Shown: positions 37,777 through 64,000 of the stretch, in pieces | Position numbering within the stretch: the first letter of the stretch is position 1 | How the letters are laid out: every line of letters begins with the position of its first letter | IMG/VR virus record: IMGVR_UViG_3300043539_001475 | Coordinates: 1 to 64,000 of that record | Origin: a virus | DNA: 64,000 nucleotides | Strand: one strand, 5' to 3' | The notes under the pieces: model-generated | Told to the model about the DNA's origin: nothing | The model's database searches: none | What the model saw: the letters and a program-made list of their open reading frames with translations, nothing else | Program-made: the position numbers and the translations under genes

Positions 37777-38301
37777 ATGGAAAAAATTAATGAATTACTA
37801 GGAAAATTAGAAAACAGAGTTACTCCTGCAATTGCAAAAAGATTGAAAGGATATGAGGGGTTGAATCAAAAGGTTGCTTTAGCCGAAGCAGAACATTTAG
37901 AAAATCCAACTGACGAGTCAGAGGAATCATTAAACGATATTAAAGAATACGTTTCTGAAGTGTTAGATGATTTGATTGAAGATTTGGAAAATTTAGTAGA
38001 GGTTAAAAATAAAAAATCAGAGGAAAAAGCTGAACAACAAAAAGCTGAACAACAAAAAGCTGAACAACAAAAAGCTGAACAACAAAAAGCTGAAGCAGAA
38101 AAAGCTGAAGCAGAAAAAGCTAAAGAGGAAAAAGCTCCCGTATCAGTAGAGCCGATAAAAGTAGTAGAAAAAGCAGAAGAGACCAAAACAGAAATTGTTA
38201 AGGAAAAGAAAAGTGGTCTTGGCGTGGTTGGACTAGTAATAGGTGTCGCTTTACTTATTGGTTCTGTCGGAGCATTTAATATAATGAAAACTAATAGATA
38301 G
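37777..38301 (+). CDS. tail-anchored membrane protein with (KAEQQ)n repeat
   Basis: 15-bp repeats 38026-38120; C-terminal TM GLGVVGLVIGVALLIG; TATATTTG at 37737. Confidence 0.75.
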   Translation: MEKINELLGKLENRVTPAIAKRLKGYEGLNQKVALAEAEHLENPTDESEESLNDIKEYVSEVLDDLIEDLENLVEVKNKKSEEKAEQQKAEQQKAEQQKAEQQKAEAEKAEAEKAKEEKAPVSVEPIKVVEKAEETKTEIVKEKKSGLGVVGLVIGVALLIGSVGAFNIMKTNR

Positions 38302-38468
38302 TGGATACTAAAAAGAAAATAATTTTAGGTGTTGTTTTTGTCGTAGTCGCAATAGGCGGATTTGCGCTTACTAAATACCTTACAAGGAATACAAAGCGTT
38401 ATAAATATAATACAATAATACTACCAAAGGAAGACATTAAACCAATGTCATCCGAAGATGTACAATAA
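38301..38468 (+). CDS. small N-terminal TM protein
   Basis: GTG start, (M)DTKKKIILGVVFVVVAIGGFALTKY..., translated by hand. Confidence 0.55.
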   Translation: MDTKKKIILGVVFVVVAIGGFALTKYLTRNTKRYKYNTIILPKEDIKPMSSEDVQ

Positions 38469-38473
38469 AAAAT

Positions 38474-39187
38474 ATGGAAAAATTTACAAAATTAGACGAT
38501 TTTAATATTTCTGATTTACCGTATAGATTTGTATTTGGTAAAGAAGACTACTCTTTACCTAATGTTAAACAAGCTAACGTAAAAACTCTTATTGATATAA
38601 AGACTAATTATGGAAAATCCATAGAAAAGTGGTCTAATGTATTTGAGTTAGGTATTCCGATGTTATCTTCTTTTATAGCAGTGGAAAGCTCTGGTAAAAT
38701 GGTAGGCAAAAATCAAGCAGGTGCAATAGGATTAACACAAGTTACTTCGGTATTAATTAGGGAATCTATTTCTAAATTTAAAATAATTACAAACGTAAAT
38801 CTACCTCAGATAGCGGAGTCGTCAATAAAACTAAAAGCACCTTTTTTATTATCCCTTACCCCAAATAACCAAAGTCTGTCTGCCTCAGAAACTTCTAAAT
38901 TAGAGGCTCTATTAAAATCAGATAGTGATTTTAATATTCTCATGGGTGCGTTAGGTTTAAGATGGGGGTTAGAAATTACAAAAGCATTAGGGAAGACTTA
39001 TTTGCAAAAAGGAATAATTGCTTATAACCAAAGCGCTTATGGTGATATTTCTAGGTATAAAAATAAATATGTAAAAACAATAACCTTGTTTAAAGATAGA
39101 GGAATACCTAAAGAAACTAGAAATTATCTAGTTAAAATTTTAGGCATAGACGGATTCTTAGAGCTATATGCAAAGGAAAATATATAA
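38474..39187 (+). CDS. lytic transglycosylase (SLT family)
   Basis: IAVESSG (catalytic E), GAIGLTQV, IAYNQ, KETRNYL. Confidence 0.82.
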   Translation: MEKFTKLDDFNISDLPYRFVFGKEDYSLPNVKQANVKTLIDIKTNYGKSIEKWSNVFELGIPMLSSFIAVESSGKMVGKNQAGAIGLTQVTSVLIRESISKFKIITNVNLPQIAESSIKLKAPFLLSLTPNNQSLSASETSKLEALLKSDSDFNILMGALGLRWGLEITKALGKTYLQKGIIAYNQSAYGDISRYKNKYVKTITLFKDRGIPKETRNYLVKILGIDGFLELYAKENI

Positions 39188-39193
39188 AAAAAA

Positions 39194-41533
39194 ATGGTTC
39201 AATTTCTGATTGTAAGTGGAAGCTTAAAAATAATTGACGGTACTAAAACTGTTGTTTTTATCGCCAAAAAGGATGTGTTTGCTATTAGCCAATCTCTTTA
39301 TCAAGAAGTTCCAATTGCTGAAATTTACAACTTAAATATAGGCTATTTAGGATTAGTTTTCACTAGAAAGCTATCTGAATGTTTAGACCCAAATGGAGAT
39401 GTTTTTACGGTAGATTCTTTTATAGTATTCGTAGAGACTTATCTGGGTTTTAATTCGGGCGGAATCCCTCAAACTATAAATCTTCAAGAAGTAACGGATA
39501 ACGGTAATACTACTACTAATTCAATAGAAGCAAACTCATTTATAAAAACTGGCGGTACTTCTTCTGAGATATTAATGGCAGACGGCTCTATTGTTACTGC
39601 TGGTGCAAATATTAGTATAAGTGGAGGTTTAATATCATCAAGTGGTGGAGGAGGTGCAGGAGGTAGTTCAGTTAATTTTTACTTGAACGGAAGTGTACCA
39701 AGTAGCGTAGCTACTTATTACCAAATAAGCACAACTCCAATTTTGGGAGCAGGAACAAATTTCACTAAAACGGGTAATGGGCTAATTGCCCAATTTTTAA
39801 CGGATATTGGGAGTCCAAATAGATTAGATATTCCATCAGGAGCTTGGAACTTTGAAATGTTTTTCAATATGTCATCAAATGGAGGTACTCCTAAATTTTA
39901 TATAGATTTGTTGACGTATGACGGAAGTACATTTACAACAATATCTAGTGGTATTTTAAATCCAGAATTTATAAGTGGAGGAACGACAGTTGATTTATAT
40001 TTAACTTCATTAGCAGTGCCACAAACAACTATATCAGCAACCGATAGATTTGCAGTTAGGGTATATATAGTTAATAATTCAGGCGAAAGAACAGCTACAC
40101 TGCATACTGAGAACGGCAATCTTTGTGAAATCATTACTACTTTATCTTATGGGATAACTTCTTTAAATGGTCTAACTGTCAATTCGCAGAATTTTGTCAC
40201 TAGTACAAGCGGAACTGATTTTAATATAGTTTCAAGTGGAAATACGCATAAATTTGATATGCCTAGTGCAAGCACATCAGCAAGAGGACTTGTTACGGTA
40301 AATAACCAATCATTTTCAGGACTAAAAACCTTTACGGATAATATTATAGTAAATACAATTAGAGTATGGAGAGGTGATAATAATTCTGCCACTAATATAG
40401 GAATTGGTTTAGATACATTAATTGGTAGTACGGGAAATCAAAATACAGCTATTGGTTATCAAGCATCATCTTCTTTACTATCAGCTAGTAGTTTTGCTAC
40501 AGCACTTGGCTATCAAGCCCTAAAAAACATTTTAGGAAATAACAATACTGGAATTGGACATAGCGCAGGCTCATTAATTACTAATGGTTTTCAGAATACA
40601 TTTATTGGGGCGCTATCAGGCGCTGTTATTGGGCAATTAATATCTGCTCAAAATAGTACTGCCATAGGTTATAATGCGTTTACAACTAAAAATAATCAAG
40701 TTGTTTTAGGTAATGCACTTGTCACTGAAACTGTATTGCGTGGAAAAATTGATTTAGATAGTGTACCAACAACAAGTGCAGGAACGTATGATATTTTAAC
40801 AAGAAATATATCTACTGGAATTATTGAAAAAATACTGTCAAGTAGTTTACAAATAACATTATCTGCTATTGGTTCAAATCCTAATGAAAATGGGTCTACA
40901 ATAACTGGTACGGTATTAAATTTACAACCCGCAAATGCTTCATTTGGAGGTGTAATCACAACGGGTACACAAACTATTGCAGGAGCAAAAACATTATCTA
41001 CTGCACCGAAGCTAAGTTCATTGACTGCTTCTGAAATATTGGCTTTGGACGCTAGTAATAACATTCAATCTTTGGCAGTAGCTACATATCCAAATTTAAC
41101 TGAATTAAGTTATGTGAAAGGAGTTACAAGTGCTGTTCAGACACAAATTGATGGGAAATTAACATCTCCAACTTTCATAGATTATTCTGCAACATCTACA
41201 GTAGTAGGTTGGACAACATTCACACAAAAAACAATAAGATATTCGGTAATTGGAAAATTATTGATTGTAGAATACTTTATTAGTGGTATATCTAATGCTA
41301 CAACAACATCTTTCACATTACCACTAGCTTCTGCTACTGTAAGTGGTATGATTTGGGCAAATAACAATCAAACACAAAATAATGCAGTCAGTTATATGGG
41401 TTATTCAAATGTTCTTTCAAATAGTTCAACTGCTACATTTGGTTATTATCCAACTGGCTCAACTATTACTGCAACTTGGACTGCAGGTGGAACAAAGACT
41501 ATAAGGGGCTTATTAACAATAGAAATAGCATAA
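39194..41533 (+). CDS. fibre/spike-like receptor-binding protein
   Basis: 779 aa S/T/G-rich; LQEVTDNGNTTTN, NTAIGYQA repeats, TQTIAGAKT motifs typical of fibres. Confidence 0.7.
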   Translation: MVQFLIVSGSLKIIDGTKTVVFIAKKDVFAISQSLYQEVPIAEIYNLNIGYLGLVFTRKLSECLDPNGDVFTVDSFIVFVETYLGFNSGGIPQTINLQEVTDNGNTTTNSIEANSFIKTGGTSSEILMADGSIVTAGANISISGGLISSSGGGGAGGSSVNFYLNGSVPSSVATYYQISTTPILGAGTNFTKTGNGLIAQFLTDIGSPNRLDIPSGAWNFEMFFNMSSNGGTPKFYIDLLTYDGSTFTTISSGILNPEFISGGTTVDLYLTSLAVPQTTISATDRFAVRVYIVNNSGERTATLHTENGNLCEIITTLSYGITSLNGLTVNSQNFVTSTSGTDFNIVSSGNTHKFDMPSASTSARGLVTVNNQSFSGLKTFTDNIIVNTIRVWRGDNNSATNIGIGLDTLIGSTGNQNTAIGYQASSSLLSASSFATALGYQALKNILGNNNTGIGHSAGSLITNGFQNTFIGALSGAVIGQLISAQNSTAIGYNAFTTKNNQVVLGNALVTETVLRGKIDLDSVPTTSAGTYDILTRNISTGIIEKILSSSLQITLSAIGSNPNENGSTITGTVLNLQPANASFGGVITTGTQTIAGAKTLSTAPKLSSLTASEILALDASNNIQSLAVATYPNLTELSYVKGVTSAVQTQIDGKLTSPTFIDYSATSTVVGWTTFTQKTIRYSVIGKLLIVEYFISGISNATTTSFTLPLASATVSGMIWANNNQTQNNAVSYMGYSNVLSNSSTATFGYYPTGSTITATWTAGGTKTIRGLLTIEIA

Positions 41534-41535
41534 TT

Positions 41536-41856
41536 ATGAACTACTATAGATATAACGAAAATTTTGAATATATAGGGGTAACAGAAACGGAACCTACTGA
41601 TTCTTTATGGACTAATACCGACTATATTGATTCATTTATTAAACCAATGTTTATTAACGGTTCTTGGATTGAAGGGGCTTCTATTGAAGAGTTAGCAGAA
41701 GCAAAAATCGAAGAAAACAAACAAAAGGATTTTGCTTGTTACAATGAACTTTTGAAAACTGATTGGTATTTTATTAGGAAGCAAGATATTGGGGCAGAAA
41801 TTCCTCAATACATAATTGACGAGCGAAATGCAATAAGACAAAAATACGCATACTAA
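41536..41856 (+). CDS. fibre assembly chaperone-like protein
   Basis: LLKTDWYFIR...EIPQYIIDERNAIR, directly after the fibre gene; start probably MNYYRY. Confidence 0.6.
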   Translation: MNYYRYNENFEYIGVTETEPTDSLWTNTDYIDSFIKPMFINGSWIEGASIEELAEAKIEENKQKDFACYNELLKTDWYFIRKQDIGAEIPQYIIDERNAIRQKYAY

Positions 41857-41909
41857 TTTAGATAAAATAAATAATAAACAGGTATAATACCTTAATGGCA
41901 GAATAAAAA

Positions 41910-42203
41910 ATGGCTTATAAAATATTACCATATTCCTTTCTACAAGCAATAAAGCTTAATGTAACAATTAAGCCTTCAACTAATATTTTTAAAAAAATTG
42001 ATGTTTTCAAGAAGGGTAATAAAGTCGCTAGTATAGGTGCAAGGGGAATGAATGATTACCCTACTTACATGGAAAAAGAAAAAAAAGGATACTACGAAAA
42101 GGGGTATGCAAGTAAAAGACGAAAATTGTATAAAGAAAGACACGAGAAAGACCGACACGTTATTGGAAGTGCTGGATATTATGCAGATAAAATATTATGG
42201 TAA
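41910..42203 (+). CDS. small basic protein, DUF5754-like
   Basis: KPST..KKIDVF...IGARGMNDYPTY...RRKLYKERH.KD...SAGYYADKILW. Confidence 0.6.
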   Translation: MAYKILPYSFLQAIKLNVTIKPSTNIFKKIDVFKKGNKVASIGARGMNDYPTYMEKEKKGYYEKGYASKRRKLYKERHEKDRHVIGSAGYYADKILW

Positions 42204-42869
42204 ATGGCAGATTATAAAAACATCGTTAGCTTTATAAAAGCAAGAGAGGGCGGTTTAAGTTCCGCCACAACAGATACGGCAAGTAGAAATTCTTCTAACT
42301 GTGGAAATGGCAGTAATATGAAACCTTATCATACAAACAAAGGAGTTACTTGGACAACTTTTACTTCTTTAGCAAGCAAATTAGGTTACAGTGCAACTTG
42401 CTCTAATTTCATGGCAATGCCAGATAGTATATGGTTGAAAATTTATAGAAGCTCTTATTGGAATCCAATGATGGGAGATAAAATTAAAAATCAGGCTGTT
42501 GCAAATGTTTTTGTGGAAATGGCATGGGGTTCTGGAGTGGGCGGTGCGACAAATGCTTTAAAGAAATTTTTCATTTCTAATTACAATAAAAGCTTTGTGG
42601 ATGTTAGTGAAATGGTTAAGTATGTAAATGAGTTAGATTCAGAAGGCAAAAGCTCTGATTTATTTGAAAAATTAAATACTTATAGAAAATCTTTTTATAA
42701 AAGTCTTGGTCAGCCAGCAAATCTTACGGGATGGATAAATAGGTTAAACGCTTTCTATATTGTTAATAAACCTTATGCAATTAGCAAAAAAGAAAAAAAA
42801 ATCGGAATTTTGGCAATATTATTAGTTATTATAGGAGGGTTATATTTATATAAAAAATTAAAGAAATAG
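42204..42869 (+). CDS. GH108-like lysozyme with C-terminal TM anchor
   Basis: REGG...TNKGVT, IYRSSYW, GWINR; tail IGILAILLVIIGGLYLYKK. Confidence 0.78.
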   Translation: MADYKNIVSFIKAREGGLSSATTDTASRNSSNCGNGSNMKPYHTNKGVTWTTFTSLASKLGYSATCSNFMAMPDSIWLKIYRSSYWNPMMGDKIKNQAVANVFVEMAWGSGVGGATNALKKFFISNYNKSFVDVSEMVKYVNELDSEGKSSDLFEKLNTYRKSFYKSLGQPANLTGWINRLNAFYIVNKPYAISKKEKKIGILAILLVIIGGLYLYKKLKK

Positions 42870-42871
42870 TT

Positions 42872-43039
42872 ATGTTAGAAAAAAAACAACAACAGGAAAA
42901 TATCAAAATAGAAGTAGAGTCACAGCTACATAAACATTTATCAACTATATTTGTAGTTGTAGGCATTATGTCATTTAGTTTAGGAATCATTGTTAATTGG
43001 TACACAATAAAGAGATTAAAATCAGGAGGTCAATCGTGA
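42872..43039 (+). CDS. small single-TM protein
   Basis: MLEKKQQQ...LSTIFVVVGIMSFSLGIIVNWYTIKRLKSGGQS*, translated by hand. Confidence 0.55.
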   Translation: MLEKKQQQENIKIEVESQLHKHLSTIFVVVGIMSFSLGIIVNWYTIKRLKSGGQS

Positions 43040-43443
43040 AAATAGATGGCAAAATAATTGATTCTAAAGGCGAAGCATTAGCATTAGCTAGCGTTACTAT
43101 TCAAGATGGTACTCGTGCTAAAAAACTAGGAGTTTCAGCAGACTTGGACGGTAATTTCACTCTAGAAAATGAAATCATAGAGCCAGATTCTGTCTTTATG
43201 ATTAGCTATATAGGGTATGAACCAAAGTTGCTTAAAGCAAGCGAGTTAAATGGTAAAACTGTAAAGTTATTAGAATCATTAGAGGAATTACCAGAATTAA
43301 CAATAATTGGCAGACCTAAACCAAATATACCAATAGTGGAAAAAGTAGATTTTAAAAAAAAATCAGTAAAAAACAATCAAGTTTACGCAGGATTAGGTGT
43401 GTTAGCAGGAATATTGTTAATTATAAAATCAGTAAAAAAATAA
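43036..43443 (+). CDS. carboxypeptidase-regulatory-like (SusC N-terminal type) domain with C-terminal TM
   Basis: IDGKIIDSKGEAL..ASV....GVSADLDGNFTL...ISYIGY; GTGA overlap suggests a GTG start at 43036. Confidence 0.75.
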   Translation: MKIDGKIIDSKGEALALASVTIQDGTRAKKLGVSADLDGNFTLENEIIEPDSVFMISYIGYEPKLLKASELNGKTVKLLESLEELPELTIIGRPKPNIPIVEKVDFKKKSVKNNQVYAGLGVLAGILLIIKSVKK

Positions 43444-43452
43444 ATAAATAAA

Positions 43453-43803
43453 ATGGAAGGACAAGCACCAGATTTAATGGTAGAAACAATAGTTGCACCA
43501 TCACCAATAGCATTAGCTACAACAGTAGCACCAGTAGCACAAGTGACGACACAAGCCCCACAAAATTATGAGGATGGCGGAGTGTTTGAGGGAAGGACAA
43601 AATCAAAGTGGAAAATGGTTGATATTTTTATTATGTCGCTTTGGATTATAGCACCTATTTACATTATTATGTACAATAGAAAAGCAATCAAAAAATTAGA
43701 CGAACAGCCAACTGTCGAAGAGTTTGAAACAATGGTTGGAGATATAGAAGAAGTGAGATATAATCTCAAAAAAGAACTTGGCGATAAATATAAAAATATA
43801 TAA
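43453..43803 (+). CDS. membrane protein
   Basis: Central TM preceded by a YEDGG motif. Confidence 0.6.
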   Translation: MEGQAPDLMVETIVAPSPIALATTVAPVAQVTTQAPQNYEDGGVFEGRTKSKWKMVDIFIMSLWIIAPIYIIMYNRKAIKKLDEQPTVEEFETMVGDIEEVRYNLKKELGDKYKNI

Positions 43804-43806
43804 ATT

Positions 43807-44412
43807 GTGAGTAAAATAGCAGTAGATAACGAAAGCATATTTAGTGGAGGTATTGGCGTTCAACTGAATAAAATATTATTAGATTATAATAAAATTACAG
43901 AACAAGATTTAATACAGTTAGAAAAAATTAAAAAACAAAAAATTATTTTAACAAAGGATTTTGTAAATTATAAAGTAGGAGATATTTTGGAAGTTAAATT
44001 CTTTCCTAATTTATTAAGGAGCGAACCGCCAAGTTTTTTAGTGATAGATGAAAAATTAGGTTCTCCTAAATATGGATTTGGAGGTAGAGGTTCTACTCCT
44101 TTTTATGAGATTTATAAAGAAAAAGAAAAAGAAAAAATAGCAGATGTAAATTCAAGTCCACAACCAAAGGTGATGCCACAACCAAAGGTGATACCACTGA
44201 TGTGGCTACCAGCACCAATAACTGAAGCAGTAAAGCAACAAAATTTAAAAATGCGAGATACTTTAACCGCAGAAGATAAGTTTTACGAAAAATTAGGTAT
44301 AAAATACCATAATACGCACATGTTTGGTCGCCCTTCAAGAAGAAAAGGCAGACTTTTGGTAGCACTAGCTTTAGTAGCAGGATATTTCGCATACAAAAAA
44401 TTTAAAAAATAA
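43807..44412 (+). CDS. tail-anchored membrane protein
   Basis: C-terminal LLVALALVAGYFAYKKFKK. Confidence 0.65.
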   Translation: MSKIAVDNESIFSGGIGVQLNKILLDYNKITEQDLIQLEKIKKQKIILTKDFVNYKVGDILEVKFFPNLLRSEPPSFLVIDEKLGSPKYGFGGRGSTPFYEIYKEKEKEKIADVNSSPQPKVMPQPKVIPLMWLPAPITEAVKQQNLKMRDTLTAEDKFYEKLGIKYHNTHMFGRPSRRKGRLLVALALVAGYFAYKKFKK

Positions 44413-44434
44413 AAAAAATTTAAAAATTAAGATT

Positions 44435-44911
44435 ATGAAAATACAATTTATAAAAGATTATACATTAACGGTTGATAATCCGTCTTGCAAAAATGGAATG
44501 ATAGGTTGTCAACCAAGTACAACGACAAACTTTAAATTAGGTCAAATTGTTTCGGGTGGAATTAGAGGAGGAAGTTTAGATAGTAAAAATTTCTATATTG
44601 ATTATGGTAATTATACTAATGCAATTCCTCTTGAGTATCTCAAAGTATTAAATGATGACGGAACTCCTTACGGGAATCCAAATAACATGGGCAATAACCA
44701 AACAAACCAAGTTGCACCAAAAAAATTATTTCCTACTACACAAAATACAATTAAAACAATTCAACCAATATCTGTAATAGACCCTAAACTTGCCCAACAA
44801 ATTAGCGAACAAATGGATAAAGAGGATAAAAAACGAAGACAAATAAAATTTGGAATTGTGTTATTAGCAATAGCATTAGGCTATTTCGCATACAAAAAAT
44901 TTAAAAATTAA
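44435..44911 (+). CDS. tail-anchored membrane protein (paralogous anchor)
   Basis: C-terminal IVLLAIALGYFAYKKFKN. Confidence 0.65.
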   Translation: MKIQFIKDYTLTVDNPSCKNGMIGCQPSTTTNFKLGQIVSGGIRGGSLDSKNFYIDYGNYTNAIPLEYLKVLNDDGTPYGNPNNMGNNQTNQVAPKKLFPTTQNTIKTIQPISVIDPKLAQQISEQMDKEDKKRRQIKFGIVLLAIALGYFAYKKFKN

Positions 44912-44915
44912 CATT

Positions 44916-45053
44916 ATGGCAAAAGAAATAAATGGGTATTTCAAAGCAATGTTGGAAGCCAAAAAGGAAAAATCATCATCGTTTACTTATAATGGTAAAA
45001 CTTATGTAGCTTCAAAAACAAAAACTGGAATGACAGTATATAAGGCTAAATAA
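44916..45053 (+). CDS. 45-aa basic microprotein
   Basis: MAKEINGYFKAMLEAKKEKSSSFTYNGKTYVASKTKTGMTVYKAK*. Confidence 0.55.
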   Translation: MAKEINGYFKAMLEAKKEKSSSFTYNGKTYVASKTKTGMTVYKAK

Positions 45054-45065
45054 ATTATTTATTAG

Positions 45066-56127: not shown

Positions 56128-56802
56128 ATGAAGAAATTAAATTTATTAGGTATATTAGCGATAGGAGGAATTGGTTATTACTTGTTAAAAAACAAAAAAT
56201 CAAAGCCAATTTCTTCATCGTCAGCTCCATATACTAAAGAAATAACTTCGGAAAATAAATTAGTTGAATATCCTGTCAATACCTATGCTAAAATTAATAC
56301 AGCCCCATCGCCAATTACAAATTGGAGTGGAAATAATAACATGCCAACTCCAATAAAAGTCGATGTTAGCTCCGTTAGTACAATTAAGCCGAGTACAACT
56401 ACTGTAAAAAATAATTCAAGCGTAAAAATAGAAAATGCGTTATCGCCTCTAGGAATTGCTAATCCAAAAGCATTGCCTAAACTTAGTTTAATTGACGCTG
56501 TTAGTAAAACAGTATTTGATTTATATCCTAAAGACGGAATTTGGAAAGCAGAACCATGGCAATTAAATAATCCTTTATGGGATAGGTATGGAATTGAAAA
56601 AGCAATGAATGAAAATCACAGTAATTATATTGGAATGGGAACTAAATTTTTAATTTTAAATCCTTCTAAAAGAAACAAATATACTGCTTATGTAGACCAA
56701 TTTGGAAATATAATTGATGCTGGAAGGACTGCAAATGGCACGGCTATGGCTTCTGCTCTTGCAATTTCACAATATAGAATAAAAAATAACATACCTTTTT
56801 AA
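56128..56802 (+). CDS. N-terminal signal-anchor protein with S/T/P stalk
   Basis: LLGILAIGGIGYYLLKNKK. Confidence 0.65.
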   Translation: MKKLNLLGILAIGGIGYYLLKNKKSKPISSSSAPYTKEITSENKLVEYPVNTYAKINTAPSPITNWSGNNNMPTPIKVDVSSVSTIKPSTTTVKNNSSVKIENALSPLGIANPKALPKLSLIDAVSKTVFDLYPKDGIWKAEPWQLNNPLWDRYGIEKAMNENHSNYIGMGTKFLILNPSKRNKYTAYVDQFGNIIDAGRTANGTAMASALAISQYRIKNNIPF

Positions 56803-56816
56803 AAAAATAAAATAAA

Positions 56817-56930
56817 ATGGAAAATTTATCAAAAAATACAAAAATAATAATCGTATTAGGTCTTTTAGGATTATCTTATTATCTTTGGAATCAGCAGAAA
56901 AAAAATAAAAACACTAATTTAAAAAAATAA
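56817..56930 (+). CDS. 37-aa TM microprotein
   Basis: MENLSKNTKIIIVLGLLGLSYYLWNQQKK... Confidence 0.55.
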   Translation: MENLSKNTKIIIVLGLLGLSYYLWNQQKKNKNTNLKK

Positions 56931-56935
56931 TAATT

Positions 56936-57082
56936 ATGAGTCAGATACAAAATCAAAATATGTCAAAAAATGAAAAACAAAAATCTCTTACCAAAACTTT
57001 GGTTAGTGTGGGAGCGAGTGTATTGGTGCTGTTTGCAACCGTTTGGGTTATAGGCATTGCTTGGAAAAAAAGCCAAAACTAA
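56936..57082 (+). CDS. 48-aa TM microprotein
   Basis: ...TLVSVGASVLVLFATVWVIGIAWKKSQN*. Confidence 0.55.
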   Translation: MSQIQNQNMSKNEKQKSLTKTLVSVGASVLVLFATVWVIGIAWKKSQN

Positions 57083-57094
57083 TAATTTTAGATT

Positions 57095-57223
57095 ATGGAT
57101 AAAAAAACAATCGGGAGCATTTTAGTAGTCTTAGGGATAGGTGCTTTAACTTATCTATATGTCGGCTACCTTAGACCTAAACAACAAGGAATACAAGACG
57201 CATTACGAGAAAATAAAAAATAA
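57095..57223 (+). CDS. 42-aa TM microprotein
   Basis: MDKKTIGSILVVLGIGALTYLYVGYL... Confidence 0.55.
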   Translation: MDKKTIGSILVVLGIGALTYLYVGYLRPKQQGIQDALRENKK

Positions 57224-57228
57224 CAACA

Positions 57229-57534
57229 ATGGAAGATGAATTATTGGGTAAAAGTGCAAATCAGCTATGGAAAGAAAGCGGAACTACTTTAAGTTTTAAA
57301 GATTGGATTCAAAGAGAAAAAGAAAAGGGAATGTTAATTCCTAATAAATTAATTAATGATTCCATTGCTTTAATTAAGAGTAGGGTTGGCATAAGAGATA
57401 GCGAAATTAGCAATGTTTCTTTAGAACAAGGAACTTCTAAAACAGTTTTAGGATTAAATAAATTGGCTATAATATCAAGTGTTTTAATTATTGGGGGGGC
57501 TTTGGCTTACAACTTTTATAAAAAAAGAAAGTAA
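57229..57534 (+). CDS. tail-anchored membrane protein
   Basis: C-terminal LAIISSVLIIGGALAYNFYKKRK. Confidence 0.65.
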   Translation: MEDELLGKSANQLWKESGTTLSFKDWIQREKEKGMLIPNKLINDSIALIKSRVGIRDSEISNVSLEQGTSKTVLGLNKLAIISSVLIIGGALAYNFYKKRK

Positions 57535-57536
57535 AT

Positions 57537-58322
57537 ATGAATTTTAGACTTCAGACAAGATACGATGAGATGTGTTTGGTTATCAATTTAGCCGTAAAAA
57601 CACCAACAGTTGTAAGAATAAAAATTTATGACGAAATGAAGCCTAAAATAGTCTTTACAGATAGGTATAAAACTGTTTTTTCAGAAGAAACTTTTTATGT
57701 TAGATTGCCCCTTACATCTGATAACATAGTAATTTCTATTTATGATGATAAAATAGGTAATATGCCAAAGGAACAAGAGAATAATATAATGATTAAAGTA
57801 ATTGATAAAATTCCTTTGGAAAAAAGACTTGATGTAGTTGATGTAAAAAATAGAACCGTTGCTAATTTTATAAATTTCGCTCAGAGGTTTTGTTATAATT
57901 CAGCATATTTAGAATCTAATAAAGCGTACCAATCTGATGATGGAGAGTTTTTAATAGAACTTGAACCATATATAACTGGAAAAAACGGAAATACTTTAAC
58001 AACGCCAGCAAGAATCTCTAAAGTAACTGGAAGGATTCAAGTGTCAAAAAAAGAATTTGATACCTATACAGTGCCTATGAAGTTTGCTATTTTGTGCCAT
58101 GAGTTTTCGCATTTTTATTTGAATGAAAATATGGACGATGAGAGCGAAGCAGATATAAATGGTTTGTTAATATATTTAGGATTAGGTTATCCTAGAATTG
58201 AGGGATACCAAGCTTTTTTAGAAGTTTTTAAGGACAGCCCTAACGAGCAGAATAAAAAGCGTTTCGACAGAATTGATGCTTTCATACAAAATTTTGAAAA
58301 AAATAAAATGATTTTACAATAA
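57537..58322 (+). CDS. HExxH zinc metallopeptidase
   Basis: FAILCHEFSHF...ESEAD (HExxH plus downstream E ligand). Confidence 0.78.
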   Translation: MNFRLQTRYDEMCLVINLAVKTPTVVRIKIYDEMKPKIVFTDRYKTVFSEETFYVRLPLTSDNIVISIYDDKIGNMPKEQENNIMIKVIDKIPLEKRLDVVDVKNRTVANFINFAQRFCYNSAYLESNKAYQSDDGEFLIELEPYITGKNGNTLTTPARISKVTGRIQVSKKEFDTYTVPMKFAILCHEFSHFYLNENMDDESEADINGLLIYLGLGYPRIEGYQAFLEVFKDSPNEQNKKRFDRIDAFIQNFEKNKMILQ

Positions 58323-58327
58323 AAATT

Positions 58328-58600
58328 ATGAAAACAAAAAATATATTGATTGGTGCGGGGGTTTTAGTGGTTGGTTACTTGCTTTTGAAAAAAAGTAAAA
58401 ATAATCAGCAACCTTTTAATATTCAGACAATAGTAAAAGACCAATCTAAAGCAGTTGTAGGCAGACCTATGACAGAAGATGAGTTGAAAAAGTTTAAATG
58501 CGAAATGGAATATTCTAAATTAGCAAAGCCAATGGTTATGATGCCTCCAGAATATTGGAGTAAACGGAAAGAAGAATGGATGAAAGCTAATTGTAAATAA
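58328..58600 (+). CDS. N-terminal signal-anchor protein
   Basis: KNILIGAGVLVVGYLLLKKSK. Confidence 0.65.
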   Translation: MKTKNILIGAGVLVVGYLLLKKSKNNQQPFNIQTIVKDQSKAVVGRPMTEDELKKFKCEMEYSKLAKPMVMMPPEYWSKRKEEWMKANCK

Positions 58601-58608
58601 ATAAAAAC

Positions 58609-59178
58609 ATGAAAATAGATAACAAAAAATTATTGATTGGTGCAGGTATATTAGCCGTTGGAACTGCAATATACCTATTCTTAAAAAATAAACGCAATAA
58701 AAGTCAGGTTGGAATATTAGATGACGAATCGATAGAAATTGACTATAATAACGCAAGTGGTAAACCCTCTTCTACTGCTAGTGGAATAGCAAGCGGAGTA
58801 GAAAAACCTTTGTCGGTTAACGATTATAATACTAGTATAGAAAAGGCATTAAATGATAAAAAATATCAAAATTACATAGGACAAAAAATATATACTCTAG
58901 TTGATAATGTGAATGTAAGAATGGGTGCAAATGTAAATAATGGTATATTTCATAACAAAGCTGGCACAATACCAAAGAAAAAAACATTTATAGGAAAGGT
59001 AGTTACTGCAAAATTAGGAAATGATAAAAAAATATGGTTTGCGGTAAATGAAGAAAACTCAAATATATTATATAATGTTAAAAAGCATTTTAATTGGAGC
59101 ATTTATTTAGAAAGAGACCCTTCTCTACGTTGGTTTAGGTCGGATGTAGTAATTGTTAAATTAGATAAAAATAAATAA
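58609..59178 (+). CDS. signal-anchor protein with SH3b-like domain
   Basis: KKLLIGAGILAVG; DNVNVR...IGKV...WFAV...WFRSDVV. Confidence 0.6.
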   Translation: MKIDNKKLLIGAGILAVGTAIYLFLKNKRNKSQVGILDDESIEIDYNNASGKPSSTASGIASGVEKPLSVNDYNTSIEKALNDKKYQNYIGQKIYTLVDNVNVRMGANVNNGIFHNKAGTIPKKKTFIGKVVTAKLGNDKKIWFAVNEENSNILYNVKKHFNWSIYLERDPSLRWFRSDVVIVKLDKNK

Positions 59179-59180
59179 AA

Positions 59181-59549
59181 ATGGAAATAGATAAAAAAAA
59201 ATTATTGATTGGTGCAGGGGTTTTAGTAATTGGGTACTTAGCTTATAAAAGTATGAAAAATAAGTCTACTATATCTAAAACAGTAGTTGCTCCTACTGTT
59301 GATACTATTGTTAAACCTACTGTTCGTACTGCTGTCGCTTTAACACCAGAGCAAGAAAAAATACAATTATTTGAAAGAGGTGTTTTAAGTTATGAAGGGG
59401 GCGTTGCTCCAAATAAAATGGTTTTAGACAATATTGCAAAAACAAGAAATGATGCGCTTGCTAAAATTAAGAATTTAATGCTAGATGCAGAATTTGCTAC
59501 TTGGAAAAGCAAACGTACAATAGATAAAAAAGCTCCTCCAAGACAATAA
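59181..59549 (+). CDS. N-terminal signal-anchor protein
   Basis: KKLLIGAGVLVIGYLAYK. Confidence 0.65.
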   Translation: MEIDKKKLLIGAGVLVIGYLAYKSMKNKSTISKTVVAPTVDTIVKPTVRTAVALTPEQEKIQLFERGVLSYEGGVAPNKMVLDNIAKTRNDALAKIKNLMLDAEFATWKSKRTIDKKAPPRQ

Positions 59550-59561
59550 AAAATAAAAAAT

Positions 59562-59858
59562 ATGAACTCAAAAACATTAAAATACGGACTTATTGGTGGG
59601 GCGGTTTTAGTAGCTATATACATCTTTAATAAAAAAAGTTTTAAAGGCACATCACAAGACCCTAATATAGACGAGCCTAGCGCAGTTGCAGACAAGGACA
59701 AATATTTGTCATTAGGTTCAACTGGTTTGGAAGTTATGTTGCTACAAAAAGCTCTTGGAAATCTTGCAGTAGATGGTATTTTTGGAGTTAAAACACAAGC
59801 TAGATTAAAAGAGGTAAAAGGGCTTAGTTTAATCACACTTAATCAATTAAATAAATAA
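59562..59858 (+). CDS. signal-anchor protein with peptidoglycan-binding (PG_binding_1-like) domain
   Basis: LSLGSTGLEVMLLQKAL..LAVDGIFGVKT. Confidence 0.8.
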   Translation: MNSKTLKYGLIGGAVLVAIYIFNKKSFKGTSQDPNIDEPSAVADKDKYLSLGSTGLEVMLLQKALGNLAVDGIFGVKTQARLKEVKGLSLITLNQLNK

Positions 59859-59861
59859 AAA

Positions 59862-60080
59862 ATGAATCGCAAATCATTTTATATATTAGGAGGTTCGTTA
59901 GCCGTTATTATTGCCGTTTTGTATTTCACAAAAAACAAGGCTATAATAGTTAAAAAAGAAGAGCGAGTTGTCACTGGGGGTCAATCAGCGACTATACCAC
60001 CAATGGAAGCTCCGACTTTAAGAACTCCTCCTTTAGTTGGAGATGTTTGGCTTACTCTCAAAGGAATATTTAATAAATAA
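59862..60080 (+). CDS. N-terminal signal-anchor protein
   Basis: YILGGSLAVIIAVLYF. Confidence 0.6.
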   Translation: MNRKSFYILGGSLAVIIAVLYFTKNKAIIVKKEERVVTGGQSATIPPMEAPTLRTPPLVGDVWLTLKGIFNK

Positions 60081-60097
60081 CAATTAAAACAATAAAA

Positions 60098-60361
60098 ATG
60101 GATGACAAAAAATTTAAAATAGCAGGATTGTTGATTTTAGCTGTTGGGGCTTATTTCTTATATTCAAGGGTAAAGCTTAATCAAAAAGTTGGAGATGTGG
60201 ACGCTATTATTTCTTCTGGAAATTCTTCTAACAAGCCAGTTTTACTTACGTTCCAAAAAGAATTTCTTTCTGCATGGGCTAGTGCTATAAAACAAAGTAT
60301 CCCTACGTTTGTATTTGAGAATAAAACATACAACACTAAAGGCGGAAAAGCAATTAAATAA
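60098..60361 (+). CDS. N-terminal signal-anchor protein
   Basis: IAGLLILAVGAYFLY. Confidence 0.6.
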   Translation: MDDKKFKIAGLLILAVGAYFLYSRVKLNQKVGDVDAIISSGNSSNKPVLLTFQKEFLSAWASAIKQSIPTFVFENKTYNTKGGKAIK

Positions 60362-60372
60362 AAAATATAAAA

Positions 60373-60882
60373 ATGGAATCTAAATTTATATCAAAAGCAG
60401 GTGATTTTATTGCTAATAATAAAAAGCCATTAATATATGTGGGAGGTGCTATTGCAATTGTTGTAATAGGGTATTCCATTATTAGAAAATTGCAAGGTGG
60501 TATTGGCTCATTTCTAAAAGACAAAAGTGTCGGAGCAAAAGACTTTGTGCCAGTTCAGGTAGATGTTGCAAAATCTACAATTTCAGATGCCATTGCTAAT
60601 AACTATGCAAATCAATTGTTTAACGCTATGGATGGTTTTGGAACTAATTCAAGTGCAATTTACGAGATTATAAATAAGCTACAGCAAAAGGAAGATTTTA
60701 GAAAAGTGTACAACTCTTTTGGAAGAAAAAGTTACTACATAGACGGAAGTCCTACTGCAAGCGCTTATATTTTTGGTTACAAAAACCTAGATTTAATCGA
60801 ATGGTTGGATAAAGAAGTTGGGTACTCGAATCCATTAACATACAACTTAGTTAAAAAAACAATTAAAAACGCAAATTTATAA
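60373..60882 (+). CDS. signal-anchor protein with an annexin-like repeat
   Basis: YANQLFNAMDGFGTNSSAIYEII resembles the annexin consensus A..L..AM.G.GT. Confidence 0.6.
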   Translation: MESKFISKAGDFIANNKKPLIYVGGAIAIVVIGYSIIRKLQGGIGSFLKDKSVGAKDFVPVQVDVAKSTISDAIANNYANQLFNAMDGFGTNSSAIYEIINKLQQKEDFRKVYNSFGRKSYYIDGSPTASAYIFGYKNLDLIEWLDKEVGYSNPLTYNLVKKTIKNANL

Positions 60883-60886
60883 AAAA

Positions 60887-61780
60887 ATGAGAAAAACATT
60901 AGCAAAAAAAATGCCTTCTAAAGCATCTTCACCAACTAGCGGTGTTTTATTTAAACCATCAAAAGTTTTAGGTGTAAAAGTTCCAAGACCAGAAAAAAAT
61001 AAAATTCAGCCAAGAATTTTAGGCGGAAAAATTGCACGACCATCCTCAAAATTAGTTGCGGATATTTCTTTAGGGCTAACACCTAAAAAGTCAAATGCAA
61101 ATTTACCTAGCACAAGTTTAGCATCTTTATCTGATTGCGAACAAAAAGCAAGGCAAAAAATGTCGAATATGAGATTCATATCAGCTAAAGCTATGAGTGA
61201 TTACAAAACAGACTTTATAGCTAAATGTATGGGCGTAAAAACAGTACTGCCAGTACCGCAAAGTATTCCACAAAAAGAACAAGAAAATAAATATTCGCAG
61301 ATGTTAAGTATGATACCTAATGAGTTTGTAATTAAGTCAAGTGGCTATAATACATCTTACTATAAAGGCAAATCTAATATTCATACAAAATTAAGCGCTA
61401 CAACGGTTGGGATTGGTACTGGTTCTCCAATACAAATTTCTAATGAAGAATTTATAGATGCTTACAGTCAATTTTTGAAACAACCAAAAGTAATGATGCC
61501 GATAATGCCATCAGCGCCATCAGCGCTATCAGCGCCATCAGCGCCATCAGCGCCATCAGAAATAACATCAGATTCAGAGTTAGAGCAAGAGCAAGAGTTA
61601 GAAACTATTACTCCTAGTAATTCTGCTGATACTGTTGCTCCTATTAATCCTACTAATAATGGCACATCCAACATTCAAGTTAATAGTGCGCCTAAAACAA
61701 AAAAAACTAATTACTTATTGTATTTTGTTTTGGCTATTTCTAGCGTAATAGTTTTAAAAAAATTTTTAAAAAAAAAATAA
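60887..61780 (+). CDS. tail-anchored protein with basic N-terminus and (SAP)n repeat
   Basis: 9-bp repeats at about 61507-61558; C-terminal TM. Confidence 0.65.
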   Translation: MRKTLAKKMPSKASSPTSGVLFKPSKVLGVKVPRPEKNKIQPRILGGKIARPSSKLVADISLGLTPKKSNANLPSTSLASLSDCEQKARQKMSNMRFISAKAMSDYKTDFIAKCMGVKTVLPVPQSIPQKEQENKYSQMLSMIPNEFVIKSSGYNTSYYKGKSNIHTKLSATTVGIGTGSPIQISNEEFIDAYSQFLKQPKVMMPIMPSAPSALSAPSAPSAPSEITSDSELEQEQELETITPSNSADTVAPINPTNNGTSNIQVNSAPKTKKTNYLLYFVLAISSVIVLKKFLKKK

Positions 61781-61781
61781 T

Positions 61782-61913
61782 ATGAAAAGCTCAACAATTT
61801 TATTAGTCGTTGGTGGATTAGCAATAGGTTATTTATATTTAGAAAATAAAAAACCACAATCTACCGTATCAAAAAAAGTCAAGCAAATCAATCAAAAGCT
61901 AAAACAACTTTAA
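61782..61913 (+). CDS. 43-aa signal-anchor microprotein, short paralog of the next gene
   Basis: [25 protein letters not shown]... Confidence 0.55.
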
Positions 61914-61923
61914 AAAAAATAAG

Positions 61924-63105
61924 ATGAAAAATTCAACAATTTTATTAGGCGTAGGTGGATTAGCAATAGCGTATTTTTATTTAAAAAATAAAAAACCACT
62001 ATCTACTACATCGACAACTCAAACAAATGAACCAACAGGTTCAACAGGTTCAACAGGTTCAACAGGTTCAACAGGTTCAACAGGTTCAACAGGTTCAACA
62101 GGTTCAACAAGTTCAACAGGGTCAACAGGGTCAACAGGGTCAACAGGGTCAACAGGGTCAACAGGGTCAACAGGGTCAACAGGGTCAACAGGGTCAACAG
62201 GGTCAACAGGGTCAACAGGGTCAACAGCATTAGTGGAAGAAATGGAAGAAATGGAACCAACGGTACAAACATCACCAACGGTACAAATACCTCCAACGGT
62301 ACAAATACCTCCAACGGTACAAACATCACCAACGGTACAAATACCTCCAACGGTACAAATATCTCCAACGGTACAAACATTACCAACGGTACAAACATCA
62401 CCAACGGTACAAACATTACCAACGGTACAAATACCTCCAATAATTATACCTTCTGTGGCTGATATTTCTTTAGGATTACAACCTATAACTACAACTACAA
62501 AACCTACAGTAGACACGGTTGTATCGGCATTTGCAGAAACGCAAACTGAAAACTATAAAAAAGCAAGAGAATTGTCAAGAAATATTAGCGCTCTTTTAAT
62601 TAAAGTTGATTTATACAAAACTAAGAAAACTAAAAATAAAATCAGAAACGAAATATCAGATAAAACAAAGCAAGCAAATGCTTTGGGGTACAAAATATTG
62701 CCTTACGGTGAAATTGTAGCATTGAACGCTGTTGCAGATATTTCTTTAGGATTAAAACCAACAACCGCTAACACACCAAGTTTTTTGACAAGAATTTTAG
62801 GAGGAACACTTACACCAAGTGCTTTAACTCAAGCAAGTAGTATGTCAACTCCAGCAAGTAGTGTGAAAACTCTACCAAGTTTTTTAGGAGGAGGACGAAG
62901 TATTACACCAAGTGTTTTAACTCAAGCAAGTAGTATGTCAACTCCAGCAAGTAGTGTATCAACTCCAATAAATAGTATAAAAATTTTCGGAGGAAGAGTA
63001 ATTCCAGTAAGCCCAACAAGTAGTGTAAAAACTCCGCCAATTTTTTTAGGGGGGCGAACAAGCGCAACAACAAATAGTTTTCTGTCAAAATTAAAAAGAA
63101 GATAA
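61924..63105 (+). CDS. signal-anchor mucin-like protein with (STG)n and (PTVQxx)n repeats
   Basis: 9-bp repeats 62035-62226; 18-bp repeats 62256-62438. Confidence 0.75.
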
Positions 63106-63106
63106 T

Positions 63107-64000
63107 ATGAAAAGTTCAACAATATTAGGGGTTGGGATAATATCAGTAGTTGGTGTGGGTGCGTATTTTTATTTAAAAAATAAAAAACCACTATCGACAA
63201 CATCGACAACAGGGTCAACAGGGTCAACAGGGTCAACAGGGTCAACAGGGTCAACAGGGTCAACAGGGTCAACAGGGTCAACAGCATTAGTGGAAGAAAT
63301 GGAAGAAATGGAACCAACGGTACAAACATCACCAACGGTACAAACATCGCCAACGGTACAAACATCGCCAACGGTACAAACATCGCCAACAATTACACCT
63401 TCTGTGGCTGATATTTCTTTAGGATTACAACCTATAACTACAACTACAAAACCTACAGTAGACACGGTTGTATCGGCATTTGCAGAAACGCAAACTGAAA
63501 ACTATAAAAAAGCAAGAGAATTGTCAAGAAATATTAGCGCTCTTTTAATTAAAGTTGATTTATACAAAACTAAGAAAACTAAAAATAAAATCAGAAACGA
63601 AATATCAGATAAAACAAAGCAAGCAAATGCTTTGGGGTACAAAATATTGCCTTACGGTGAAATTGTAGCATTGAACGCTGTTGCAGATATTTCTTTAGGA
63701 TTAAAACCAACAACCGCTAACACACCAAGTTTTTTGACAAAAATTCTTGGACGAACACTTACACCAAGTGTTTTAACTCAAGCAAGTAGTATGTCAACTC
63801 CAGCAAGTAGTGTGAAAACTCTACCAAGTTTTTTAGGAGGAGGACGAAGTATTACACCAAGTGTTTTAACTCAAGCAAGTAGTGTATCAACTCCAATAAA
63901 TAGTATAAAAATTTTCGGAGGAAGAGTAATTCCAGTAAGCCCAACAAGTAGTGTAAAAACTCCGCCAATTTTTTTAGGAGGACGAACAAGCGCAACAACA
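63107..64000 (+). CDS. tandem paralog of 61924-63105, runs off the window end
   Basis: ATG 63107, [28 protein letters not shown]; long near-identical blocks with fewer repeat units. Confidence 0.8.
   Translation, partial: MKSSTILGVGIISVVGVGAYFYLKNKKPLSTTSTTGSTGSTGSTGSTGSTGSTGSTGSTALVEEMEEMEPTVQTSPTVQTSPTVQTSPTVQTSPTITPSVADISLGLQPITTTTKPTVDTVVSAFAETQTENYKKARELSRNISALLIKVDLYKTKKTKNKIRNEISDKTKQANALGYKILPYGEIVALNAVADISLGLKPTTANTPSFLTKILGRTLTPSVLTQASSMSTPASSVKTLPSFLGGGRSITPSVLTQASSVSTPINSIKIFGGRVIPVSPTSSVKTPPIFLGGRTSATT

Follow-up and report, generated by a model that had tools for sequence, protein, structure and literature searches.

What kind of particle would a virus of about 100 kb build if its genome offers a packaging-type ATPase, a jelly-roll protein and several dozen small membrane proteins, and none of the genes by which tailed phages are usually recognized? 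This question is raised by a 64,000-nucleotide (nt) stretch of viral DNA, here called the window, which comprises bases 1–64000 of the IMG/VR virus record IMGVR_UViG_3300043539_001475. An earlier inspection of the bare sequence (the original prediction) had proposed that positions 37777–64000 encode the structural region of a large tailless, membrane-containing virus of Bacteroidota, whose genome was put at 'at least 64 kb'. The size can be corrected, as the window belongs to one virus record of 101,210 bp. Genes are named below by their start position, and the coordinates of the features are collected in Table 1.

We interpret the record as the complete or near-complete linear double-stranded DNA genome (~101 kb) of a lytic virus of freshwater bacteria, which would form tailless, membrane-lined particles, package its DNA with an ATPase of the A32/B204 type (48784) and use the jelly-roll protein 52694 as its main shell protein. 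To this reading we assign a probability of about 0.62. That the virus is of this general type, i.e. tailless and membrane-lined with A32/B204-type packaging, irrespective of which protein makes up the shell, appears likely.

A predicted packaging ATPase of the A32/B204 type

The product of 48784 shows both Walker motifs, A as GRKGCGKT and B as LLLIEDI. Searches at the sequence level were little informative: PDB sequence and profile searches returned nothing meaningful, Pfam gave only below-cut-off matches to AAA_22 and DUF87/HerA, and the PHROG scan produced a weak match (E = 1e-5) to phrog_2666, which is labelled as a terminase large subunit. The protein is a P-loop NTPase, and a fold of the B204 type accounts for it. 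This fold emerged from an AlphaFold model built from an alignment of 18 orthologs (predicted local distance difference test score, pLDDT, 87). When the model was compared with the PDB by Foldseek, all of the top 12 matches were to the B204 packaging NTPase of STIV2/STIV (E = 1.4e-8), and the next protein, Zot, followed with a thousand-fold weaker score (E = 1e-5). The VIA aligner, run against 48,161 chains, likewise ranked B204 first (Z 17.3, root-mean-square deviation 2.7 Å, 185 of 204 B204 residues, 18% identity), ahead of HerA (Z 15.3), DndH (15.2), VirB4 (14.9) and FtsK (11.2), and there was no terminase among its top 50. In BFVD, the best matches were packaging ATPases of Corticoviridae, the sphaerolipovirus PH1, mavirus, Sputnik and many nucleocytoplasmic large DNA viruses (NCLDV)/giant viruses. 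Relative to B204, the protein has an additional helical extension of ~55 residues at its C-terminus. Thus, at the level of the modelled fold, 48784 is structurally a packaging ATPase of the A32/B204 type, and the single-domain FtsK-HerA/A32-type ATPase of the original prediction is borne out by its motifs, by two aligners that agree on B204 as best match and by the viral packaging ATPases that lead the BFVD list.

VirB4, TrwB and HerA are also among the structural neighbours of the ATPase (Z 12–15), which brings a different kind of element into consideration: one that makes no capsid at all, is plasmid-like or transferred in vesicles, and uses its membrane proteins together with an FtsK/VirB4-like ATPase for DNA transfer. 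The many membrane proteins described below would fit such an element, as would the fact that the capsid protein is unproven. We nevertheless regard it as very improbable. The ATPase is, as in viral packaging enzymes, a compact single domain of 272 amino acids (aa), whose best match, B204, is covered over its whole length; a relaxase, a coupling protein or a full VirB4 turned up in no scan, and a tblastn search with the ATPase found no homolog in 72,556 plasmids. Moreover, a holin/endolysin cassette is present, and the related records are classed as viral and are mis-binned across phyla as free virus contigs are.

A conserved jelly-roll protein downstream of the ATPase gene

The second gene on which our interpretation relies is 52694, which the original prediction had listed as a small β-rich capsid candidate. 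Its product has no sequence or profile match in Pfam, PHROG or the PDB, and ESM Atlas scores of ~0.8 were uninformative. A model built with 86 diverse relatives (pLDDT 88) comprises a helix at residues 3–16, a disordered linker and an eight-stranded jelly roll at residues 50–205. In this model 52694 folds confidently into a jelly roll as known from capsid proteins, so that a capsid-like fold is predicted. The matches in fold searches are generic, with Z scores of 5–6.6; they include picorna-like coat proteins, TNF/C1q heads, a capsid chain of phiCjT23, capsid domains of PBCV-1 and faustovirus, and the decoration/cement proteins of the tailed phages KHP40 and Pam1. Coat proteins of the P23-77 or SH1 type were not found among the best 50 fold matches. 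What stands of the earlier claim is thus a confident eight-stranded jelly roll, whereas the capsid role is a matter of interpretation.

Conservation and gene linkage argue for this role. The family of 52694 comprises 1898 clusters at 90% identity in a near-length search and 566 at 50%, and across relatives the median identity is 80% for 52694 as compared to 73% for the ATPase. Linkage could be assessed in 40 related loci that hold enough sequence and whose ATPases are 35–98% identical to 48784. In 39 of these, a full-length homolog of 52694 lies on the same strand 0.27–3.0 kb downstream of the ATPase gene, and a gap of only ~300 bp separates the pair in many relatives. The 40th locus, which is the most distant one, has two adjacent weaker copies 8.6 kb downstream of the ATPase gene. 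Judging from gene order, the ATPase and jelly-roll genes therefore form a conserved module. It is this conservation and linkage, not the specificity of the fold, from which we infer a capsid role for 52694.

The jelly-roll gene has also been duplicated. A second, shorter paralog (g121, contig 84117–84560, E = 4e-13) lies 31 kb from 52694, shares with it a DPYQ(Y)Q motif and is kept in four of five relatives. In some relatives the full-length gene is present twice in tandem, or two domains are fused in a protein of ~400 aa. Two adjacent full-length jelly-roll genes occur, for example, at 12537–13969 of locus L008 and at 19526–20854 of locus L056, and a 102-kb IMG/VR relative (G002) has six jelly-roll copies at 6650–18406, including a 406-aa open reading frame (ORF) with two complete tandem domains.

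Possible alternative shell proteins: 27511 and the giant proteins

Further genes that could contribute to the particle lie upstream of the structural region. The 27511 family has at least 213 clusters, among them sequences from Tara Oceans, with lengths confined to 554–567 aa, and it has neither a Pfam domain nor a PDB profile match. No other conserved protein without a recognized fold is as large in this lineage, and 27511 is the main candidate for a hidden structural protein. The neighbouring 2575-aa protein, for which no PHROG or Pfam family was found, contains 31 [FYMLIV]-x-x-G-G motifs, mostly of the form [YFM]-A-x-G-G-x-[LVI], where 6.1 are expected and 1000 shuffles gave 14 at most; the 1933-aa protein has 11. 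These GG motifs look like linkers or cleavage sites between modules. An Ulp1-type protease model, a candidate for acting on them, matched none of five records, that is, the 101-kb record and four relatives. In G002 (L065–L067) and in a 76.7-kb IMG/VR relative, G004 (L062–L063), the two giant proteins retain their modules at 40–74% identity, but in another order and in part duplicated, which on this comparison amounts to domain shuffling inside single giant ORFs. Both proteins may be carried inside the particle for delivery into the host.

With these candidates at hand, 52694 might belong to the same kind of virus and yet be a vertex (penton) or spike-head protein, while the role of true major capsid protein falls to, e.g., 27511 or to a piece cut from the 2575-aa protein with its putative cleavage motifs. 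Several of the better fold matches of 52694 are vertex-type proteins, namely PR772 P31 (Z 6.3), the N-domain of PM2 P1 (5.4), the STIV turret (5.2) and PRD1 P5 (5.0); the TNF/C1q-like heads among the matches are trimeric, the domain recurs in several extra paralogs, and the core family of 27511 is conserved in length and has no known domain. However, receptor-binding heads are usually encoded by the most variable genes, whereas 52694 exceeds the ATPase in conservation and accompanies it in nearly every locus, and its product combines 233 aa with an N-terminal helix. In addition, double-jelly-roll Pfam models match nothing in the five genomes, and 27511 sits among genes resembling those for early or internal proteins, beside the MoxR-type ATPase. 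We therefore consider a vertex or spike role rather unlikely and retain 52694 as the candidate main shell protein.

Tailed-phage hallmark genes were not detected

The original prediction had noted that no terminase, portal or HK97 capsid gene is recognizable in the structural region. To cover the complete contig, 59 proteins (all 15 ORFs of at least 350 aa and 44 smaller ones) were scanned against PHROG and 45 against Pfam. These scans yielded no true match to a terminase, portal, HK97 capsid, tube, sheath, baseplate or tape measure protein. Six-frame searches with the Pfam models Terminase_6N, TerL_ATPase, Phage_portal and Phage_capsid (E ≤ 1) were negative in all five records and positive in control genomes. 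At the level of sequence profiles, an HK97-fold capsid protein was thus found neither by PHROG nor by Phage_capsid. Apart from the ATPase match mentioned above, two weak PHROG matches bear such labels: the P-loop kinase of 19122, again a P-loop NTPase, matches phrog_800 (terminase small subunit, E = 8e-4), and the sole portal match (E = 3e-4) connects a 174-aa transmembrane (TM) protein with a low-complexity tail. The observation made in the window accordingly extends to the other 37 kb of the contig and to the four related records, and this gene content suggests that the virus lacks a tail.

It could be argued that the virus is a tailed phage that has diverged so far that profiles no longer recognize its terminase, portal and HK97 capsid; the ATPase and the jelly-roll protein would then serve accessory functions such as DNA handling and capsid decoration. 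Its genome size, giant modular proteins, lysis cassette and early genes for RecT, a PD-(D/E)XK nuclease and YopX are indeed tailed-phage-like. Jelly-roll decoration proteins, those of KHP40 and Pam1, are among the matches of 52694, and ATPases similar to 48784 occur in a few tailed phages (Bacillus phage G gp155 is in the BFVD list). Furthermore, four proteins of 390–560 aa (16082, 24910, 27511 and 47605) have no assigned fold or family. PDB profile and sequence searches with 27511, 24910 and 16082 gave nothing meaningful, and hhalign found nothing when the 27511 family was compared with the terminase, portal and capsid proteins of crAss001. On the other hand, of these candidates for a hidden hallmark, 16082 and 24910 have no match in G002 and G004, 27511 is only 24–25% identical there, and 47605, albeit 55–58% identical, is a low-complexity protein with ERA repeats. 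TerL, moreover, which as a rule is detected more easily than any other phage gene, was seen neither in the 59 scanned proteins nor in six frames of the five records. The missing tube, sheath, baseplate and tape measure matches point in the same direction, as does the predominance of single-pass membrane proteins, which are encoded by over half of the 'structural' genes. A divergent tailed phage hence appears improbable to us, and a tailless particle with A32/B204-type packaging remains the preferred explanation.

The structural module is enriched in single-pass membrane proteins

TM helices were scored on the Kyte–Doolittle scale in a 19-residue window, with thresholds of 1.6 (low count) to 1.4 (high count). 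By this procedure, 22–26 of the 46 plus-strand genes at 37777–64033 encode a protein with one TM helix, and 25–29 genes do so when three doubtful minus-strand ORFs are added. The 'more than 25 single-TM proteins' of the original prediction are therefore borderline within the window, but the number is clearly exceeded when the module is followed to 85.8 kb (39–44 of 74 plus-strand genes at 37.7–85.8 kb). Between 53.5 and 70.9 kb the proportion reaches 26–31 of 35 genes. The helix is mostly located at the extreme N- or C-terminus. Compared with the remainder of the genome, the module is significantly enriched (42 of 77 TM genes at 37.7–85.8 kb versus 11 of 77 elsewhere; Fisher p = 2e-7). The same procedure identified 9 of 27 genes in PRD1 and 14 of 66 in the structural half of crAss001, i.e. 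the share at 37.7–85.8 kb exceeds that of PRD1 scored identically and differs from that of crAss001 with a Fisher p of 6.5e-5. With the TM share taken as a proxy, this gene content is suggestive of an internal lipid membrane.

Distribution and host

The ATPase gene is carried by 43 IMG/VR contigs and 11 contigs of metagenome-assembled genomes (MAGs), and the relatives range from 77 to 132 kb. The MAG bins are labelled Bacteroidetes, Sediminibacterium, Gammaproteobacteria, Opitutia, Chlamydiae, Ignavibacteria and an actinobacterium (Planktophila), and two are archaeal (Bathyarchaeia, Pacearchaeota). This scatter (L046–L056) probably reflects contamination of public MAGs by free-virus contigs. 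The window or part of it was found in 24 sequencing runs from 24 studies (2016–2025), all of which are freshwater or lake water according to the run labels; at least half of the sampled words of the window are present in 17 of these runs, and eight runs are possible sources of the DNA itself. One metatranscriptome run shares 19% of the sampled words, too small a share to count as evidence. Among 50,697 phage records, neither megablast with the window nor tblastn with the ATPase and the jelly-roll protein gave a match. No description or cultured relative was found in full-text literature and the same phage records, a collection that is incomplete.

Signals for gene expression point to the host. 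Shine–Dalgarno (SD) cores precede 2 of 154 genes, as compared to 10% of random windows; A is strongly enriched at positions −11 to −14 and −3 relative to the starts, and TAnnTTTG occurs upstream of 16 of the 154 genes, where ~4% is expected. Scarcity of SD sites, an A-rich upstream region and promoters of the TAnnTTTG type are characteristic of Bacteroidota. In view of the missing SD sites, the promoter motif and two metagenome bins, the host is likely to be a member of Bacteroidota; the CarboxypepD_reg domain present in one protein was also counted in favour of this assignment. A 132-kb contig binned as Sediminibacterium was inspected for a host flank or an integration site; it is viral throughout and constitutes weak host evidence only.

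Organization and extent of the record

The 101,210-bp contig has a GC content of ~31% and encodes a single tRNA gene, for tRNA-Gln. Its coding strand is plus at 0.2–85.8 kb and minus at 85.9–99.3 kb. The minus-strand block encodes RecT, a PD-(D/E)XK nuclease, YopX, DUF932 and DNA methylases, and the left end encodes a DnaQ-like exonuclease, a replication initiator and glycosyltransferases. In relatives of 100.3 and 102.2 kb, the ATPase gene is found at a similar distance from one end. The 132-kb relative is colinear with the 101-kb genome and viral from end to end, its additional 10–20 kb at the ends containing only small ORFs and HNH and homing endonucleases. In the last 200 bases of the contig (~101095–101150), just inside the right end, AAATACCTC is repeated four times in tandem and followed by degenerate copies; the AAATACCTC repeats may represent a telomere-proximal or origin repeat. 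No repeat matching AAATACCTC was found at the left end of the record.

Proposed particle and points against it

Taken together, these data can be combined into the following model. Dozens of small virus-encoded single-pass proteins would be inserted into the cytoplasmic membrane of the host, and a patch of this membrane would become enclosed by a shell consisting mainly of the jelly-roll protein 52694, with the small paralog at contig 84117–84560 as a possible second shell or vertex subunit. The ATPase 48784, docked at one vertex, would pump the genome into the preformed particle, which probably also carries both giant modular proteins. Membrane-anchored wall hydrolases (GH108 and others) may act at entry, and the holin/M15-endolysin cassette would release the progeny.

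Several points weigh against this interpretation. To begin with, the membrane and the tailless form are predictions from gene content. The top fold match of 52694 is the carbohydrate-binding domain of AlgX (Z 6.6), and according to the aligner's own guide, Z scores below 8 may reflect a common arrangement only; as the matches are generic and below this value, the fold alone does not say 'capsid'. An alignment of 52694 with PRD1 P31 or P3 was not found by hhalign, and the Pfam Capsid_NCLDV and PRD1 P3 models, which represent very divergent families, matched none of the five records. Additional paralogs in one relative, including the tandem 406-aa ORF, sit outside the structural block, so the jelly-roll domain is not used only for the coat. 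For the ATPase, the Pfam Pox_A32 model gave no six-frame match in the five records (E ≤ 1), and hhalign aligned it with PRD1 P9 at the Walker A motif and nothing beyond, which places its kinship at the fold level only. The four proteins of 390–560 aa without assigned fold or family also count on this side, and so do the metagenome bins with relatives, most of which are not Bacteroidota.

Completeness has to be listed here as well. Direct or inverted terminal repeats were not found on the 101,210-bp contig, for which CheckV estimates a completeness of 100%. The same value is returned for G004, yet G004 matches genes g003–g094 only and stops where the paralog array begins, and so resembles a fragment that covers part of the shared gene order. 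The CheckV estimate for the 101,210-bp record is consequently weak, and such estimates are unreliable across the lineage. All in all, the poorly described lineage of large lipid-containing bacterial viruses that the original prediction envisaged is supported by the ATPase, the jelly roll, the TM excess and the lack of tailed-phage hallmarks, but is not proven.

Other genes of the structural region and beyond

Table 1. Features of the window, in the structural region and upstream of it, that were considered in this analysis. Single positions denote gene starts.
Feature	Position	Strand	Evidence
Polyvalent protein of 1933 aa: Zeta-toxin-like kinase, DUF5661, DUF5824, ART-PolyVal	19122..24923	+	Pfam
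MoxR/CobS-like AAA+ ATPase	26162	+	phrog_249, E 1e-13
Conserved 557-aa protein after the MoxR/CobS-like ATPase	27511–29184	+	Family search
Modular giant protein of 2575 aa	29892..37619	+	31 [FYMLIV]-x-x-G-G motifs
Envelope/entry-type genes	37777..46114	+	Pfam, PHROG, TM scan
Proteins with C-terminal TM	37777 and 42997	+	TM scan; 42997 with CarboxypepD_reg domain (CarbopepD_reg_2, E 2.9e-8)
Weak SLT-like protein	38474	+	Pfam SLT, E 0.009
Spike-like protein of 779 aa	39194	+	phrog_4636 (tail spike), E 2e-11; tail-spike-like stretch
Small conserved proteins	41910 and 44916	+	Conservation
GH108 muramidase with C-terminal TM anchor	42204	+	Pfam GH108, E 2.5e-11; TM scan
Glucosaminidase, no TM	45066	+	Pfam Glucosaminidase, E 4e-17
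Conserved genes directly upstream of the ATPase gene	46127..48783	+	Present in 33–43 of 43 related loci at 50–70% identity; phrog_824, E 1e-11, in block
PAP2-superfamily phosphatase	46127	+	Pfam PAP2, E 2.7e-12
Protein of 128 aa, putative nuclease	46771	+	PD-(D/E)XK-like motif in sequence
Protein of 150 aa	47163	+	Conserved upstream of the ATPase gene
Low-complexity protein of 392 aa with ERA repeats, abutting the ATPase start	47605	+	Sequence
Single-domain FtsK-HerA / A32-B204-type ATPase, 272 aa, predicted genome-packaging motor	48784..49602	+	Motifs, AlphaFold model, fold searches
Lysis cassette between ATPase and jelly-roll genes: small TM protein, M15 peptidase, PAS-PAS-2TM protein, N-terminal-TM protein	49721..52260	+	Pfam, TM scan
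Single jelly-roll protein, 233 aa, candidate major shell protein	52694..53395	+	AlphaFold model, conservation, ATPase linkage
About 20 consecutive small genes, the majority encoding a single TM at the N- or C-terminus; predicted virion-membrane proteins	53488..61913	+	TM scan
Conserved HExxH zincin	57537–58322	+	Motif HEFSH; ESM Atlas metallopeptidase-cluster score 0.85 (lead only)
First members of a paralog array with N-terminal TM anchor and Ser/Thr/Pro stalk	61924..64000	+	Repeats, TM; array runs to ~69.6 kb of contig

The membrane-anchored cell-wall modules of the original prediction were only partly recovered. GH108 muramidase 42204 has a TM anchor, whereas for glucosaminidase 45066 and M15 peptidase 49997 the enzyme assignment holds but no TM helix was seen, and the SLT match of 38474 is weak. 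The lysis cassette, in which Peptidase_M15_3 (49997, E = 2e-20) and PAS_3 (E = 9e-25) were recognized by Pfam, appears from the gene order to be an insertion between the ATPase and jelly-roll genes of the 101-kb genome. At the corresponding position of G002 (56500–59200) there is an unrelated 175-aa ORF flanked by small TM proteins, and about a third of the relatives have no insert between the two genes.

Neither PHROG nor Pfam gave a match for any of the small genes at 53488..61913. In the paralog array that follows, TM segments are located at residues 5–23 in g094–g100, g105 and g106. Two of its members, 61924 and 63107, were considered as a tail or collagen-like fibre and rejected, as their PHROG 'tail fibre' matches cover only (GST)n and PTVQ low-complexity stalks. 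The fibre noted earlier in this region is hence better described as TM-anchored stalks, which are evidence for neither a tailed nor a tailless particle; the tail-spike-like stretch lies in the separate 779-aa protein 39194. Beyond the window, three large Gly-rich repeat proteins of 763–1233 aa (contig 70.9–80 kb) look like fibrous spikes of the adhesin type. A sulfotransferase, an adenosine phosphosulfate (APS) kinase and a glycosyltransferase-like gene form a sulfation-type module at contig 80516–82703; the three genes occur in identical order and with 61–67% identity in the 102-kb relative.

Comparison with known virus groups

Among known viruses, the Halopanivirales (Sphaerolipoviridae SH1/PH1/HHIV-2, Simuloviridae, Matshushitaviridae P23-77) resemble the 101-kb genome in several respects. 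They have an A32-type ATPase gene beside single-jelly-roll coat genes, an internal membrane and many small membrane proteins, features that are predicted here from the genes, and the ATPase of PH1 is among the top structural matches of 48784. They possess two adjacent major capsid genes, whereas here a second, smaller paralog is found 31 kb away and adjacent copies occur in some relatives. Their hosts are haloarchaea or Thermus, they have no sequence similarity to the 101-kb genome, and their own genomes measure 16–31 kb.

Similar parallels exist with the Tectiviridae (PRD1/PR772) and Corticoviridae (PM2), which share with the present genome a packaging ATPase, membrane-anchored lytic enzymes and tiny TM proteins. 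Members of both families form tailless particles with an internal membrane and a packaging ATPase at a unique vertex. The gene order of PRD1, i.e. ATPase, small TM gene, capsid gene and small TM genes, is similar in the 101-kb genome, and the NTPase of Corticoviridae is the second-best viral match of 48784. They differ in their double-jelly-roll capsid protein and their genomes of 10–15 kb, and they replicate by a protein-primed or rolling-circle mechanism. B204, to which the ATPase is structurally closest, comes from the archaeal viruses STIV/STIV2 (Turriviridae), with genomes of ~16–17 kb.

At the other end of the size range, Nucleocytoviricota such as asfarviruses have large double-stranded DNA genomes, A32-type ATPases and membrane-lined capsids, and many A32-like NCLDV proteins are among the fold matches of 48784. 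With its x-x-G-G motifs, the 2575-aa protein is reminiscent of polyproteins that are cleaved at Gly-Gly-X. They differ in their eukaryotic hosts and double-jelly-roll capsid, and the Pox_A32, Capsid_NCLDV and Ulp1 models match nothing here. The crAss-like phages (Crassvirales) in turn are similar with respect to low-GC genomes of ~100 kb, giant proteins of the virion type and hosts among the Bacteroidota; the genes annotated as terminase, portal and major capsid in crAss001 are not detectable in the 101-kb genome.

Judged by sequence, the virus thus belongs to none of the families of PRD1, PM2, STIV or SH1, and its genome is three to ten times the size of theirs. Prokaryotic double-jelly-roll viruses had genomes of 7–18 kb in a 2018 survey (PMC5894146), and sphaerolipovirus genomes reach ~30 kb (PMC12643093), which makes the 101-kb genome at least threefold larger than that of any described bacterial virus of this type. 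Chances appear even that we are dealing with a new high-rank lineage of bacterial viruses, in which an A32-type ATPase is combined with a single-jelly-roll coat protein (in part duplicated and fused), membrane-lined capsids and genomes of ~100 kb. The lack of any cultured member and of hallmark genes detectable by sequence would explain why such a lineage has gone unnoticed. The group recurs in lake water, is invisible to surveys based on terminase or capsid markers and is often mis-binned into bacterial or archaeal MAGs. Its single, tandem and fused jelly-roll forms within one family provide a natural series for the transition from single to double jelly rolls. Moreover, a group of 80–130 kb would be the bacterial counterpart that fills the size gap between the tailless phages of 10–30 kb and the large DNA viruses of eukaryotes, showing that this virion design scales up in bacteria too, which bears on the origin of large DNA viruses.

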